A DNA stretch of 64,000 bases, taken from the NCBI GenBank assembly GCA_963743865.1, contig CAVURG010000006.1:75198-139197 (forward strand), given 5' to 3'. Under the pieces are notes generated by a model. That model was not told the origin of the DNA, searched no databases, and saw nothing but the letters and a program-made list of their open reading frames with translations. The position numbers were made by a program, and so were the translations under genes. Shown here piece by piece: positions 17,229-38,766 of this stretch; within the stretch, counting starts at the first letter, position 1, and the number at the start of each line of letters is the position of its first letter. The DNA is from an uncultured delta proteobacterium (GTDB lineage Bacteria > Desulfobacterota > Binatia > Binatales > Binataceae).

Positions 17229-17490
17229 CGGCAGCACCCAATGTTAAGGCCGCCCGCCGTTGGCGGGCGCGGCATGAAGGAAGAATCACCTGCGCGGTGG
17301 GCGGCAGGGGCTGCGGCCCCTGCACCCGCAGTGAGAAGACGCGAAAATCTGCGCAGCGCATCTTTTCGCGACTACGCGACGGCCAGGGGTGACCCCTGCA
17401 CCTGGTGAAAAGTGAAAAGTAAAAAGAAAAGATGCGGGCTTCGCCCTGTTAGAACTTTTTTTGTGTCATCCTGAGCGCAGCGAAGGATCT
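17219..17490. repeat. Cluster of REP-like palindromic repeats
   Basis: 28-mer TAAGGCCGCCCGCCGTTGGCGGGCGCGG (17245-17272); two CAGGGG-n-CCCCTGCACC hairpins; 32-mer 17424-17455 repeated at 61058; TGTCATCCTGAGCGCAGCGAAGGATCT at 17464-17490. Confidence 0.8.
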
Positions 17491-17686
17491 CGCGCGCCAG
17501 CGCGTATCGCTTCAGCACCAACATCCGGTTACGCAAAGCTCTCCCTGTCAGGGCGAGGCAAACATGCCACCGAAGCCGCAATAAGGATCATTGAGGTCAT
17601 CACGTCGCTTGAACGAGGTTTCCTGAAAAGGAATAATCATCCCAACGAGGTGACGGTCGAAGCGATAGAAAACAGAGAGCGAGAGT

Positions 17687-17833
17687 AGCGCCAGGACTCA
17701 TGGCCGCATCGCGCCATGAGTTGACGAGGTGGAAGCAGTATCGAAAGATTCGGCGGATGGCTTCCCGGCTCCACAGTCGATAGAGGTGAGCAAACCGCGC
17801 GAGCGATCGCGCGACAAAGTACGCCTTGCGTGG
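17687..17833 (+). ncRNA. glmS ribozyme (GlcN6P-activated self-cleaving riboswitch)
   Basis: AGCGCCAGGACT, P1 ACTCATGGC/GCCATGAGT, TGACGAGG, GGAAGC/GCTTCC, TATCGAAAGATTCGGCGGATG, CGGCT/AGTCG, GCGA-capped P4 hairpin, CCAC/GTGG pseudoknot; 134 nt upstream of the glmS ATG. Confidence 0.93.
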
Positions 17834-17966
17834 CAGAGCATCCGGCTCTGACGTGATTTCCTAAACTCTCCTGCACAAATCGTATCGCGATCGTTTCGCC
17901 CTGAGCCGGTGGGTTCGGATAACTCTGCAAACTTCCCTGCGAATCCGGGGAAAGGAGCGAACGATC

Positions 17967-34994: not shown

Positions 34995-35007
34995 ATTTCC
35001 GTCGCGA

Positions 35008-36345
35008 TCATCCGGCGGCGTCTAGCGCGCGCAATGCCAGGCCGCGCGCGACCGACGTGAACTCGTCGCCCATTCGGATTCGATCGGCGCCGAAGCGTTC
35101 GATGAAAATGCGGCGCACCGCGGGCACGAACGACGAACCTCCGGTCAGGAACACGCTGTCGATCGCGCCGGGCTTGAGCGCGACCGTCCTCATCAGCCGA
35201 TCGACGCATCCGGCGATCTGTTCGAGATAGCGCGCGATCCAATTTTCGAAATCGCCGCGCGCAACCGTCTTTTCGATCAGGACCGGCGGATCGGAAAACA
35301 TGAAGTCCGCGGCTTCCAGCGCGGATAACCCGAGCTTGGTCTTCTCCACCGATCGAAACAGGAAGTAGCCGAGATCGTTTCCCACAATATGAATCAGCGC
35401 GGCGATCTTTTCGGGCTCGAACGATTCCCGCTTCAGTTCCTCGAACCTGAGCATCGTCGAACGAGCCTTCAGGAACGACAGATGATGCCATCGCTCGAGC
35501 CTGGTGTACGGCCAGGTCGGCGCCGGCAGCACCATCCCGTACGGCGAGCGGTACTTCGTGCCGCGGCCGAGCGCGGGCGCGACCAGATGCCGCATCACGC
35601 GGCCGTCGAAGGCGTCGCCCGCGACGGCGACGCCGTCGTTGCCCAAAATCTCGTAGCGCGCCCCGCCATGCTTCGCGGCCGTTCGCGCCTTCAGTCGCAG
35701 CACCGAGAAATCGCTGGTGCCGCCGCCGAAGTCCGCAATCAGCACCGTCTCGTCGCGCGTGATTCGAAGCGCGTAGTCATACGCCGCCGCAACCGGTTCG
35801 TACTCGAACGCCACGTCGGTCCATCCCGCACGCCGAATCGCGACGTCCAGCCGGCTTCGCGCCAGAGCCTCGTCCGGATTGCCGGCAGCCGCGAAATGGA
35901 CCGGGCGTCCGACCACGATTCGCGGCGGCAACTCGCCGAACTGCGCGATCGCGCCGTCGCGGAGCGCGCTGATGATCGGCGCAATCAAATCTCCCAACGA
36001 ATACGTTTCGCCCATGATATCGGTGGATTCGAAAGTCTTGTCTGCGAGAAACGACTTGAGCGATTGTACCAGCCGCCCGTTGCCGGCGGCTGCGAGGTAG
36101 CGCCGAATCGCGTCGTTGCCGACCGAGACGGCCGAATCGGTACCGCCGGTTTCCTCCGGTGCCTCGAAAAACAGAATCGAACGCAACGTCTCGGACTGAT
36201 CGCCACCCTCTGCGGCGGGAAAACGCGCCAGGCGCGGCGAACCGTCAGCGCCGACGATCGCAATCGCGCTGTTGGTGGTGCCGAAATCGAGGCCGACCGC
36301 CTCCACTTTAGCCGCGGCCGGAGCGCTGGAGATGTCCTGCATCAT
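35008..36345 (-). CDS. Hsp70-family protein (YegD-like)
   Basis: GLDFGTTNS, GRLVQSLKS, VGRPV, EPVAAA, DFGGGTSDFS, FLTGGSS. Confidence 0.9.
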   Translation of the reverse strand: MMQDISSAPAAAKVEAVGLDFGTTNSAIAIVGADGSPRLARFPAAEGGDQSETLRSILFFEAPEETGGTDSAVSVGNDAIRRYLAAAGNGRLVQSLKSFLADKTFESTDIMGETYSLGDLIAPIISALRDGAIAQFGELPPRIVVGRPVHFAAAGNPDEALARSRLDVAIRRAGWTDVAFEYEPVAAAYDYALRITRDETVLIADFGGGTSDFSVLRLKARTAAKHGGARYEILGNDGVAVAGDAFDGRVMRHLVAPALGRGTKYRSPYGMVLPAPTWPYTRLERWHHLSFLKARSTMLRFEELKRESFEPEKIAALIHIVGNDLGYFLFRSVEKTKLGLSALEAADFMFSDPPVLIEKTVARGDFENWIARYLEQIAGCVDRLMRTVALKPGAIDSVFLTGGSSFVPAVRRIFIERFGADRIRMGDEFTSVARGLALRALDAAG

Positions 36346-36373
36346 GCGTTCACGATTGAGGCGCGTTGTACTG

Positions 36374-36402
36374 TTGTCAACGTTGAGCAAGACGCATATA
36401 CT
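36374..36402 (+). promoter_or_regulatory. sigma70-type promoter
   Basis: TTGTCA-17 nt-TATACT. Confidence 0.7.
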
Positions 36403-36464
36403 CGCCAAACCCTCAGGATGACGATCGCATTGCGGCTGCTCGTCCGAAACAACCCGGTCCCTCA

Positions 36465-36495
36465 GCGGACGAGATATTCTCGTCCGCATTTTTTT
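36465..36495 (+). terminator. Intrinsic terminator in the leader of a methyltransferase
   Basis: GCGGACGAGA-TAT-TCTCGTCCGC followed by A and 7 T. Confidence 0.75.
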
Positions 36496-36531
36496 CAGTC
36501 GCGCATCGCCAGTGCGCGCAGGAAGGAAAGA

Positions 36532-37329
36532 ATGCCGCCGGAAATTCGTGAGTCTGAAGTCGCCGCGCAATGGGATCGCAATGCCGATGTGTGGGCCGAC
36601 CAGGTTCGCAACCGCTGGGATATCTTTCGCGAGCATTGGAACAATCCCGCTTTCCTGGAATTCGCCGGCGACTTAAGCGGGAAGGCTGTGCTCGATGCCG
36701 GATGCGGCGAGGGCCACAACACGAGGATCTTCGCGCGCCGCGGCGCCCGCATGACGGGAGTGGACCTGTCCGCCAAAATGATCGAGTTCGCGCGCGAAGA
36801 GGAACTCCGCGAACCGCTGGGAATCCGCTACGAACGCGCTTCGTTCAGCAACTTGGCAACTTTCCGCGCAGAGTCATTCGACGCGGCCGTCTCGACGATG
36901 GCGCTGATGGACGGTCCTGATTTTCCAGGCGCGATGCGGGAAATCACACGCGTGCTGCGCCCGGGCGGGACGCTCGCGTACAGCATCCTGCATCCCTGTT
37001 TCGCGACCAAGGGGATGGGCTGGGTGAGAGACGGTTCGGGGCACGCCATCAAATTCACCGTCGCGGATTATTTCAACAGCGAACCGTTTGTCGAGCGCTG
37101 GAAGTTCGGTCATGCGCCCAACGCGTCGCAGGTCGAGGACTTCGGCGTGCCGCGCTTCGATCGCACGCTTGCCGACTACATCAACCCGACCGTCGCGGCT
37201 GGTCTGCGGGTCGAGGAGATTCGCGAGCCGCGCGCTCCCGAGTCCGCGTGCGCGCTGTATCCCGAGGCGTTCGCCAAATTTCGCGATCACATCCCGTGGT
37301 TCTTTTACGTTCGCGCATCGAAGTCGTGA
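36532..37329 (+). CDS. Class I SAM-dependent methyltransferase
   Basis: AGGAAGG RBS; VLDAGCGEG, GVDLS, RVLRPGG, ILHPCF. Confidence 0.88.
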   Translation: MPPEIRESEVAAQWDRNADVWADQVRNRWDIFREHWNNPAFLEFAGDLSGKAVLDAGCGEGHNTRIFARRGARMTGVDLSAKMIEFAREEELREPLGIRYERASFSNLATFRAESFDAAVSTMALMDGPDFPGAMREITRVLRPGGTLAYSILHPCFATKGMGWVRDGSGHAIKFTVADYFNSEPFVERWKFGHAPNASQVEDFGVPRFDRTLADYINPTVAAGLRVEEIREPRAPESACALYPEAFAKFRDHIPWFFYVRASKS

Positions 37330-37337
37330 GACAAAAT

Positions 37338-37763
37338 ATGATTCGTACGCTGACAGGAATCCTTGCAGGAGCCGTTTGCATGATGCTCGCCGGATGCGGC
37401 GCGCAGGGCGAAGCGTATCAGCCGATGGCGACTCCCGCGTCCAAGAGCGTCATCTACATTTACCGGCCGTACCAGGTTCTCAGTTCGCAGGCGACTCCGA
37501 TGATCACTTGCGGCCATGAGAGCATTGAATTGGAACCAGGCGGCTATTACGCGTTCGTCGAGGACAGCGGAGCGGTGACTTGCGCGGCCGCGACCGGCAC
37601 CAAGACGGAGTACAAATTCGATGCGCGCGCGGGCGAGCAATACTTCATCAAGGAGGATGTCGATTCCGTCGGGCTCGGCAGCCAGGTGCGATTCAGCTTG
37701 ATGAATGCCGCGGTGGCCGGCGACGAAATCAAGGAATGCAACCGCCAGGGAATTAAACAGTGA
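37338..37763 (+). CDS. Lipoprotein, DUF2846-like
   Basis: Lipobox LAGC; VIYIYRP; GEQYFIK. Confidence 0.7.
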   Translation: MIRTLTGILAGAVCMMLAGCGAQGEAYQPMATPASKSVIYIYRPYQVLSSQATPMITCGHESIELEPGGYYAFVEDSGAVTCAAATGTKTEYKFDARAGEQYFIKEDVDSVGLGSQVRFSLMNAAVAGDEIKECNRQGIKQ

Positions 37764-37851
37764 ATCCGGCGGCGCCGCCGCATCGTCGAGGAGTCGGATT
37801 CATTTCGGCCACGAGGGCTCGGGTTGGCGCCGATTGTAGCGGCAGCGCAAG

Positions 37852-38766
37852 CTATTTCTTCGCGAGATACGCCATCCCGATGCGGGCCGGCGTGAGATTT
37901 ATTCCGAACTCATCGACCAGCGGCTTGATGTTGCACGCGTTGTCGGCGGTGACAAACGTGACCGCGTCGCGCGACAGCATCGGCTTGGGCAGCTTTTCCA
38001 GCAGGGCGCCGATCGTGCGCATGATGCCTTCCGGAATATGAAACAGCGGGCGGCGATGTCCGCTCGCGTCCATGATGATCCGCATCATCTGGTCGAACGT
38101 CATCAGCTCCGGCCCGCCGATTTCGTAAGTTCCGTTGCGGCCGCGACCCGACACCGCGAGCATCACGCACGCGGCGAGATCATCGACGAGCACCGGCTGA
38201 ACTTTCTGCCGCCCGGTGCCGGGCACGCCAAAGACCGGCGCGAAACGCAGCGCGCGGGCGAGACCGCTTACAACTTTGTCCTCCGGTCCGTACACCAGCG
38301 ACGGGCGGAAGATGGTGTAGGCCAGGCCCGACTCGCGGATCGCGCGCTCGGCTCGGCCTTTGGCGCGAAAGCCGGGATGGGTGCTGTTCTCGTCGGCAGC
38401 GGCGCCGCTGATGTAGATGAATTGGCGCACAGCGGCTTGCTTCGCCGCGTCGATGAGCGCGACCGCGCCGGCGTAGTCGATTCGTTCGAAGGTGAGGCCG
38501 CGGCGCGGATTTTCGACCGGATAGCCATCGAACTGGATCGCATCGACAATCGTGTCCGCGCCCTGGAGCGCATCCTTGAGCGATGCGGGCTGTCCGATGT
38601 CTGCGCGAACAAACTCGATGCCGGGCAGATCGAGCCGCGCGCGCGCCGCCTGGGGATTTCGCGTGAGCACGCGAAGCCTGGTTTCGCCCGGAGCGAGCAG
38701 GCGCCGCGCGATCGCGCGACCGATGAATCCCGAGCCGCCCGCGAGAGTGACGGTTCTTGCGCCCAT
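37852..38766 (-). CDS. NAD(P)-binding atypical SDR (NDUFA9-like)
   Basis: GGSGFIG, TIFRPSLVYG, QPVLVDDLA, YEIGGP. Confidence 0.85.
   Translation of the reverse strand: MGARTVTLAGGSGFIGRAIARRLLAPGETRLRVLTRNPQAARARLDLPGIEFVRADIGQPASLKDALQGADTIVDAIQFDGYPVENPRRGLTFERIDYAGAVALIDAAKQAAVRQFIYISGAAADENSTHPGFRAKGRAERAIRESGLAYTIFRPSLVYGPEDKVVSGLARALRFAPVFGVPGTGRQKVQPVLVDDLAACVMLAVSGRGRNGTYEIGGPELMTFDQMMRIIMDASGHRRPLFHIPEGIMRTIGALLEKLPKPMLSRDAVTFVTADNACNIKPLVDEFGINLTPARIGMAYLAKK

Follow-up and report, generated by a model that had tools for sequence, protein, structure and literature searches.

A single-copy promoter, tag and terminator element between divergent Hsp70-like and methyltransferase genes in a subset of Binataceae

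The locus

We analysed a 64,000-nucleotide (nt) stretch of DNA from an uncultured delta proteobacterium of the family Binataceae (GenBank assembly GCA_963743865.1, contig CAVURG010000006.1, positions 75,198 to 139,197 of the forward strand); this stretch is called the window, and positions are given within it. The 187-nt intergenic spacer at 36346-36531, with an Hsp70-like gene on one side and a class I methyltransferase gene on the other, holds a single-copy, lineage-specific non-coding transcription unit that occurs in a subset of Binataceae. It is made up of a sigma-70-type promoter, an invariant 5' tag, a first hairpin (hairpin 1) and an intrinsic terminator (Table 1). An earlier note on this DNA, made from the sequence alone, had picked out the promoter between the divergent genes, a terminator ahead of the methyltransferase and four segments able to pair in alternative ways (segment 1 at 36416-21, segment 2 at 36439-46, segment 3 at 36466-73 and segment 4 at 36479-86), and had read them as an attenuator or an RNA of about 90 nt acting as a small RNA (sRNA). 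All the features that it listed are present where it had placed them, and the T-run of the terminator ends 36 nt before the methyltransferase ATG. Both broad options are alive; the specific RNA switch that the note derived from the four segments is unsupported, as set out below.

Table 1. Features of the element and its flanking genes, with positions in the window
Feature	Position	Strand	Basis
Hsp70-like (YegD/PRK11678-like) ATPase gene	35008..36345	-	PF00012, E 8.9e-20
Candidate Hsp70-like promoter: TTGACA (36380-36375), 17 nt, AATCGT (36357-36352)	36352..36380	-	by eye; 24 lineage representatives
Sigma-70-type promoter, TTGTCA-17-TATACT	36374..36402	+	scan score 10/12
Invariant 5' tag, CCAAACCCUCAGGAUGA (general form CCAAA-N6-GGAUG)	36405..36421	+	invariant alignment columns; identity 0.95-0.97
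Hairpin 1 (segments 1 and 2 plus inner stem)	36416..36445	+	minimum free energy folds; 12 pairs, 98.3% of cells paired
Variable spacer, including second CCCUCAG	36446..36464	+	identity 0.69, down at the level of third codon positions
Intrinsic terminator (segments 3 and 4)	36465..36495	+	stem-loop 36465-36487, then A and U7 (T-run 36489-36495)
Read-through leader: GC hairpin 36500-36518, purine-rich Shine-Dalgarno sequence AGGAAGGA 36520-36527	36496..36531	+	no promoter found
Class I S-adenosylmethionine (SAM)-dependent methyltransferase gene, substrate unassigned	36532..37329	+	PF08241, E 1.6e-24; ATG 36532, stop 37327-37329
DUF2846-like lipoprotein gene	37339..37763	+	PF11008, E 1.4e-5, below its cut-off

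A promoter scan of the 1.4-kb region returned two promoter-like sites against 0.3 expected, and the plus-strand promoter was recovered by the same scan in four of five loci from other lineages. Its -10 hexamer varies as TA...T (TATAAA, TATTCT, TAATCT, TATTGT), as a working -10 would, and the spacing to CCAAA-N6-GGATG is fixed. Placed from the position of the -10, transcription would start at A36407-36409. The TTGACA of the candidate Hsp70-like promoter on the minus strand, which falls below the threshold of the scan tool, overlaps the plus-strand TTGTCA. In the lineage representatives, TTGACA is followed on this strand after 17-18 nt by a weak -10, (G/C)AT..T, and 6-7 nt further by an ATG; here the ATG lies 6 nt past the -10, and the Hsp70-like mRNA looks leaderless. 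In Binatus this ATG opens the Hsp70-like gene itself (window 36343-36380; read by eye). In most non-Binatus genera it opens an upstream open reading frame of 6-10 codons, the TGA of which overlaps the main start as ATGA (loci L102-L194). The overlap suggests coupling by termination and reinitiation, and in Binatus the two appear fused in frame.

Structure and conservation of the RNA

A covariance model was built from 16 genomes of the same genus that have the orthologous methyltransferase, the divergent layout and a strongly conserved spacer. Exactly one match per genome was found in 41 of the 47 Candidatus Binatus genomes, and in 24 of the 28 genomes with a completeness of 90% or more and a contamination of 5% or less. 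We aligned 38 of the 41 matches (36 distinct sequences), leaving out three genomes in which the element is internally deleted (G060, G049 and G022); alignments A1 and A2 both contain one genome flagged as unpublished (G023).

The minimum free energy fold of the 89-nt transcript consists of hairpin 1 and the terminator (-30.8 kcal/mol, z = -3.3, a moderate value). The terminator stem has ten pairs, seven of them G-C, with a loop of three, and classes as an intrinsic terminator. One terminator-like site in the region, against 1.6 expected in shuffled sequences, is by itself no excess over chance; the observation rises above chance because of the conservation and the compensatory changes in both helices. 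The two-hairpin structure is paired in 98.9% of alignment cells, compared with 18-49% when the 3' partners are slid along the alignment, four pairs have changed on both sides, and none of 500 shuffles reached the observed covariation score. The terminator stem is paired in 99.7% of cells across the 36 sequences, with three pairs changed on both sides, and at pair 16/66 of hairpin 1 there are 31 sequences with AU, two with UG, one with CG and one with UA. Since the U-G and G-U pairs are compatible with the plus strand only, the plus strand is the RNA strand.

Sequence identity follows the same architecture. Over 30 Binatus loci, mean pairwise identity is 0.95 in the unpaired 5' end, 0.97 in the 5' arm of hairpin 1, 0.95-0.97 in the terminator arms and 0.92 in the promoter, and drops to 0.69 in both the spacer and the terminator loop, next to 0.685 at third codon positions of the methyltransferase. 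Promoter, tag and both stems are under constraint, and the loops and the spacer drift like third codon positions; the read-through leader likewise differs among relatives in length and sequence. Both hairpins are preceded by CCCTCAG (36410-16 and 36459-65), which the earlier note had likened to a tandem duplication. The two copies are there, yet the second is not conserved and diverges in relatives to CCCTTAG, CCTTTAG, TTTTTAG and others, which argues against a duplication.

In one diverged member of the Binatus clade (L102, the same as L017, in G024; 1351-1459), 19 inserted nucleotides enlarge the loop of hairpin 1. They form a GC hairpin followed by U7, a terminator-like module nested within hairpin 1, and the main terminator of this locus has two compensatory stem changes.

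The alternative pairing and the reading frame

The switch envisaged in the earlier note would shift the RNA between a 2:3 antiterminator and a terminated form with 1:2 and 3:4 pairing; as considered here, the trigger would be either a ligand or a ribosome translating a leader peptide from the ATG in segment 1. In this genome segments 2 and 3 do form a perfect 8-bp helix. However, the central pair of that helix is standard in only 10 of the 36 distinct Binatus sequences and is an A-C mismatch in the other 26; the helix as a whole is 87.8% paired, level with shuffled controls, and no pair has changed on both sides. Where position 6 of segment 1 differs, the compensating change is in segment 2 and not in segment 4. 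The 2:3 helix is also energetically costly: when it is forced, the fold loses 9.5 kcal/mol of stability here and 13.4 kcal/mol in a relative of the majority type, and the best fold so obtained still pairs segment 4, now with segment 1, right beside the U-tract. No 2:3 complementarity was found in other genera, where inspection by eye also showed no consistent 1:4 or 2:3 pairing. Covariation among homologues, which the note had put forward as a check, therefore upholds hairpin 1 and the terminator and fails for 2:3. Pairing of segments 1 and 4, considered separately, was rejected; it is 97% paired but invariant, hence uninformative, and it breaks wherever segment 1 changes.

The note had further pointed out that an ATG in segment 1 (36418) is in frame with the methyltransferase. 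This holds: it precedes the start codon of that gene by 114 nt (38 codons), and 25 of the 33 distinct Binatus sequences have no stop in this frame across the terminator stem as far as the T-run. The frame is nevertheless not conserved: counted from the ATG of GGATGA, the distance to the start of the downstream gene takes all three values modulo 3 (0, 1 and 2), the closest relative already has stops, and the peptides that would be made are unrelated between genera. The +2 frame does no worse (open in 29 of 33 sequences), and no Shine-Dalgarno sequence stands at a working distance from ATG 36418. A leader peptide or N-terminal extension was rejected because the frame varies and has no advantage in openness over the +2 frame, and a trp-type ribosome-mediated attenuator because it would have neither a conserved leader reading frame with a Shine-Dalgarno sequence nor a conserved 2:3 antiterminator. 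On the plus strand, 35389-37329 is a single open frame of 646 codons that covers the antisense of the Hsp70-like gene and the spacer and continues into the methyltransferase frame; high G+C creates this frame, which is not a gene, and it is the reason that ATG 36418 looks 'in frame'.

As for a ligand, the note had seen no likeness to the SAM, SAH (S-adenosylhomocysteine), ZTP, fluoride or guanidine riboswitch families, and an Rfam search agrees, with no family at or above its gathering threshold at the element. Positions 36000-36900 searched at E<=10 gave only mir-49, at 14.9 bits against the 60 needed, a meaningless match, and seven diverged loci searched at E<=1 gave nothing at the element. 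The comparative data largely refute the switch, which we consider very improbable.

Phyletic range

The element is present once in its own genome (one blastn match), and no sibling copies with up to three mismatches to the tag and two to the promoter box were found there beyond the locus itself. Of 165 Binataceae genomes, 67 contain the pattern TTGTCAAYGT-N20-23-CCAAAS, each a single time; those in G108 and G149 are chance matches, lacking both the Hsp70-like gene and GGATG. A stricter pattern that adds N5-GGRTG was found in 45 of 351 genomes of the class, all of them Binataceae (44 of 106 Binataceae genomes, from eight genera; G018 and G178 among the matches are flagged as unpublished), and in none of 244 genomes from the 19 other families of the class. 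Under the same completeness filter, 55 of 107 genomes, belonging to 10 of 27 genera, encode an orthologue of the Hsp70-like protein (E<=1e-100). The tag is present in eight of those ten genera and in none of the 17 genera without the gene, and it is absent next to distant orthologues (53-59% identity; g18 and g36). The Hsp70-like gene adjoins the element in 36 of the 41 Binatus loci and in all other tag-bearing genera.

Across genera only the 5' tag is conserved, with a constant spacing from the -35 to GGATG in all eight and a variable N6; the genera differ in whether a hairpin comes after it and in the size and sequence of that hairpin. The CCCUC in which the earlier note had seen an anti-Shine-Dalgarno seed falls within this N6 outside Binatus, and the seed reading is unsupported. 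Terminators stand at the equivalent place in other genera, and the scan detected one in all five loci tested. Their sequences, such as GGGCCGA...UCGGCCC or CGGCGGCUCGC...GCGGGCCGUUG, are unrelated to that of Binatus. That the element might itself be a repeat of the REP (repetitive extragenic palindromic) or BIME (bacterial interspersed mosaic element) kind is ruled out, as it is found in one copy per genome and always in the orthologous place.

Natural variants and downstream genes

The genes behind the promoter and tag vary. In Binatus, g44, part of g42, g20 and g22 the methyltransferase comes first and a DUF2846-like lipoprotein gene second; DUF2846 stands alone in g32, G166, G079/G080, G006 and G010, and other genes follow in g26. 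DUF2846 is the commonest downstream gene across lineages; it is the first gene after the element in g32 and G166, where it comes behind tag and terminator, and also in G003, G049, G010, G006, G079 and G080. In the window only 9 nt separate the methyltransferase stop from the DUF2846 start, and we therefore regard the two as one operon.

Individual genomes show how the parts come away from one another. In G003 the methyltransferase has been deleted, and the intact RNA with its terminator now precedes DUF2846; in G014 the methyltransferase is a pseudogene, and in G016 a different gene lies downstream. In G049 and G022 a deletion has removed the terminator and fused promoter and tag to DUF2846, and in G010 the tag and hairpin run straight into DUF2846 with no terminator. 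G060 has lost the 3' half of hairpin 1 and retains terminator and methyltransferase, and G041, G042, G050 and G057 have lost the Hsp70-like gene and retain the RNA and the methyltransferase. Altogether the methyltransferase is missing or decayed in G003, G014, G016, G022, G049, G006, G010, G018, g25, g26, g32 and G166. It appears to decay repeatedly while the upstream RNA stays intact. Because it is absent, decayed or replaced behind the same promoter and tag in many lineages, it is an optional passenger, the constants being the promoter and the 5' tag. The tie to a SAM methyltransferase drawn in the earlier note does not survive this comparison: with the gene dispensable, SAM- or SAH-type logic has no basis.

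Further damage to the methyltransferase was seen in G050 (L055) and G001 (L061), where it is frameshifted and returned by tblastn as two pieces in different frames; in G014 (L063) it has shrunk to 45 codons with a TAG.

A leader with a terminator and its alternatives

We favour, with moderate confidence, the reading of the element as a terminator-containing 5' leader from which an RNA of about 90 nt is released and past which the downstream genes depend on read-through. The strong sigma-70-type promoter would fire away from the Hsp70-like gene, with its -35 element overlapping that of the opposing promoter. The transcript would begin with the invariant tag (AAAC-N5-GGAUGA), followed in Binatus by the covarying hairpin, and in most lineages a strong intrinsic terminator 55-110 nt downstream would release a short RNA, of about 89 nt here. 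Polymerases reading through would supply the methyltransferase-DUF2846 mRNA, the operon starting 36 nt after the U-tract. The leader would then be an attenuator in the broad sense, setting or gating downstream expression, and if read-through is regulated, the sensor would most likely be a trans-acting factor recognising the invariant tag and hairpin rather than a 2:3 rearrangement. Two observations lead us to a 5' leader: the downstream genes have no promoter of their own, and promoter and tag are kept in front of DUF2846 after loss of the methyltransferase or the terminator. Neither in the window nor in five loci from other lineages did the scan detect another promoter past the terminator and ahead of the downstream start; the operon would therefore be transcribed by read-through alone.

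Several observations weigh against this reading. We found neither an alternative structure nor a ligand pocket that is conserved, and regulation is an assumption. An invariant, unpaired 5' end is what one would expect of the seed of an sRNA. In g26 other genes follow the element, and in G018, a genome flagged as unpublished, a 55-nt version (promoter, tag, terminator) is followed by a convergent alpha-L-fucosidase gene; since the next gene is convergent, the element is no leader there. In g32 a candidate DUF2846 promoter, TTGCGC-16-TAAAAT, found by eye and below the scan threshold, lies past the terminator. Expression data speak neither for nor against it: in a wetland metatranscriptome (X1), contigs 85-95% alike cover most of 35000-38000, unstranded and with carry-over of DNA possible; among them is a 273-nt contig that spans 36266-36538, the contigs giving neither strand nor ends nor level. 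Three other runs yielded no pieces there.

The main rival is a stand-alone trans-acting sRNA of about 89 nt, with the 5' end as a pairing seed or protein site and read-through as a by-product. It would account for the element having its own promoter and a strong terminator, and for a 5' end that is invariant and single-stranded while internal loops drift. The element also outlives the loss of the methyltransferase (G003, G014, G016) and of the Hsp70-like gene (G041, G042, G050, G057), and in G018 it persists in minimal form ahead of a convergent gene. However, the tag occurs without a terminator in G010, G049, G022, G006 and G080, where no discrete sRNA would be made, the N6 of the putative seed changes between genera, and no sibling copy exists. 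A scan of 5814 crude start regions of the own genome gave a best target in which the 5' end forms a 14-bp duplex over the Shine-Dalgarno sequence of a secreted-protein gene (dG -27.4; the best hits of ten shuffled seeds reached -19.5 to -23.3). This gene is accessory, present in 22 of 47 genomes of the genus (E<=1e-30), and the start regions of the homologues examined do not keep the pairing (dG -7 to -18). Hfq (PF17209) was not found in any of six genomes searched, namely this one (G000, 82.6% complete) and five of the genus that are 97-100% complete, with positive controls. On this balance we think an sRNA of this kind possible but rather unlikely.

The predicted target encodes a 374-aa secreted, repeat-rich (GNLWV/GDLWV) protein and lies outside the window (G000 C6:1571715-1572836, plus strand). 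It belongs to a fast-evolving, accessory family with homologues often in two to three copies per genome, and the duplex is seen in this genome only.

Two other RNA-level partners were tried and rejected. A CsrA/RsmA-sequestering RNA finds no CsrA (PF02599) in any of the six genomes, and the element has a single conserved GGA that is outside a stem. Pairing of the first 20 nt with the 5' region of the Hsp70-like mRNA gave z near 0 over 18 lineage representatives; in the own genome z is -2.7, at a site that is not conserved.

The constraint might instead act on DNA, with CCAAA-N6-GGATG as an operator or initial-transcribed element for both promoters and the terminator merely an insulator. The constant spacing from the -35 to GGATG in eight genera with a variable N6, and the retention of the tag with or without a following hairpin or terminator, would both be expected of such a site. 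In addition, the -35 hexamers overlap, so that the polymerases would exclude each other, and a 10-bp palindrome, TCAACGTTGA, overlaps the -35 and the promoter spacer. Yet the tag is not a dyad, and the covariation in both hairpins is that of an RNA, its G-U pairs being compatible with the plus strand only. Nor would an operator explain why terminators have been recreated with different sequences in different genera. We regard this explanation as improbable.

Comparison with known systems

Terminated leaders and small RNAs are a well-known kind, of which the element is a new family; present evidence does not point to a new kind of mechanism. Its nearest counterpart in layout is sgrS-setA of E. 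coli, where read-through of the sgrS terminator gives expression of setA, the start of which is 27 bp further on (PMC9765468). Here too a short RNA has its own promoter and intrinsic terminator, the next open reading frame follows 36 nt on and, as for setA, has no recognisable promoter, a layout that recurs in g44 and G166. The neighbour of sgrS, sgrR, is also divergently transcribed, but the divergent neighbour here is an Hsp70-like ATPase and not a transcription factor. Unlike SgrS, which is Hfq-dependent, has known targets and encodes SgrT, the element comes with no Hfq that we could find, and with no conserved target from the own-genome scan or on the Hsp70-like mRNA.

In Sinorhizobium meliloti, rnTrpL is described as a short RNA derived from an attenuator and able to act in trans (PMC6614838). 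The likeness is that an intrinsic terminator closes a 5' leader, which is released as a short RNA; rnTrpL is ribosome-dependent, with a leader peptide and alternative hairpins, whereas neither peptide nor alternative hairpins are conserved here. A broader relation is to the uncharacterised premature terminators in bacterial 5' untranslated regions, the sensing part of which is reportedly fast-evolving and unannotated (PMC2965389). The element shares with them a terminator inside the 5' untranslated region, and differs in having an invariant 5' tag, a fixed divergent-gene partner and a defined phyletic range.

Protein-dependent antitermination is the remaining comparison. In the leaders controlled by BglG/SacY (through the ribonucleic antiterminator, RAT), ANTAR proteins or PyrR, a protein bound to a short RNA upstream of the terminator allows read-through, and a protein might bind the conserved RNA here to the same effect. 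The protein site in those leaders shares sequence with the 5' arm of the terminator, however, whereas hairpin 1 is split from its terminator by a variable 19-nt spacer, and no Rfam model matches. Among open papers, searched in their main texts, none joins Binatia with 'small RNA' or Binatota with riboswitch.

The element occurs once per genome within a sharply bounded range, its promoter and terminator are defined, its helices covary and its tag is invariant, which makes it a clean candidate RNA family that could enter RNA catalogues and serve as a marker. Binatia are abundant uncultured bacteria of peat and soil. Three genes would be wired through one compact control region, a leaderless Hsp70-like gene on one side and a read-through-dependent lipoprotein/methyltransferase operon on the other.

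Flanking proteins, repeats and other RNAs

Neither flanking protein could be named closely. The Hsp70-like protein matches NF008673 (E 1e-54) at 186 bits, below the 331-bit cut-off, and the methyltransferase has only generic, sub-threshold matches in NCBIfam, with no specific name.

A modular REP/BIME-like repeat lies elsewhere in the window, at about 17380-17560. It consists of a hairpin, T7 and then GTGTCATCCTGAGCGCAGCGAAGGATC..., and often has an inverted partner, ...CGCTCAGAATGACAC, some 100-180 nt away; further sites in this genome are at G000 C6 4928, 587619, 1456752 and 3220411-3226681, among others. We counted 34 copies in the genome (up to five mismatches to a 24-nt core), mostly at gene ends, and 4-46 copies of the core in five other Binataceae genomes, against 0-1 for a reversed control. 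Rfam has no family for the repeat, the one weak match being Enterococcus-1 (26.9 bits against 71.4), and a literature search by its sequence returned unrelated primer matches only.

The Binatus tag CUCAGGAUGAC is a perfect 11-nt complement of GUCAUCCUGAG, an arm of the mosaic hairpin repeat. If the 5' end were a seed against these repeats, the small RNA would modulate REP-bearing transcripts globally, or the same protein would bind both it and them. The tags of other genera (CCCUAAGGAUGA, CCGUUUGGAUGU and GCAUAAGGGUGA) match just 5-9 nt of the repeat arm, and we therefore keep the link as a long shot only.

At Rfam gathering thresholds the whole window contains a single known RNA, far from the element: a glmS ribozyme (RF00234) at 17676-17836 on the plus strand (86.9 bits, E 1.3e-18).

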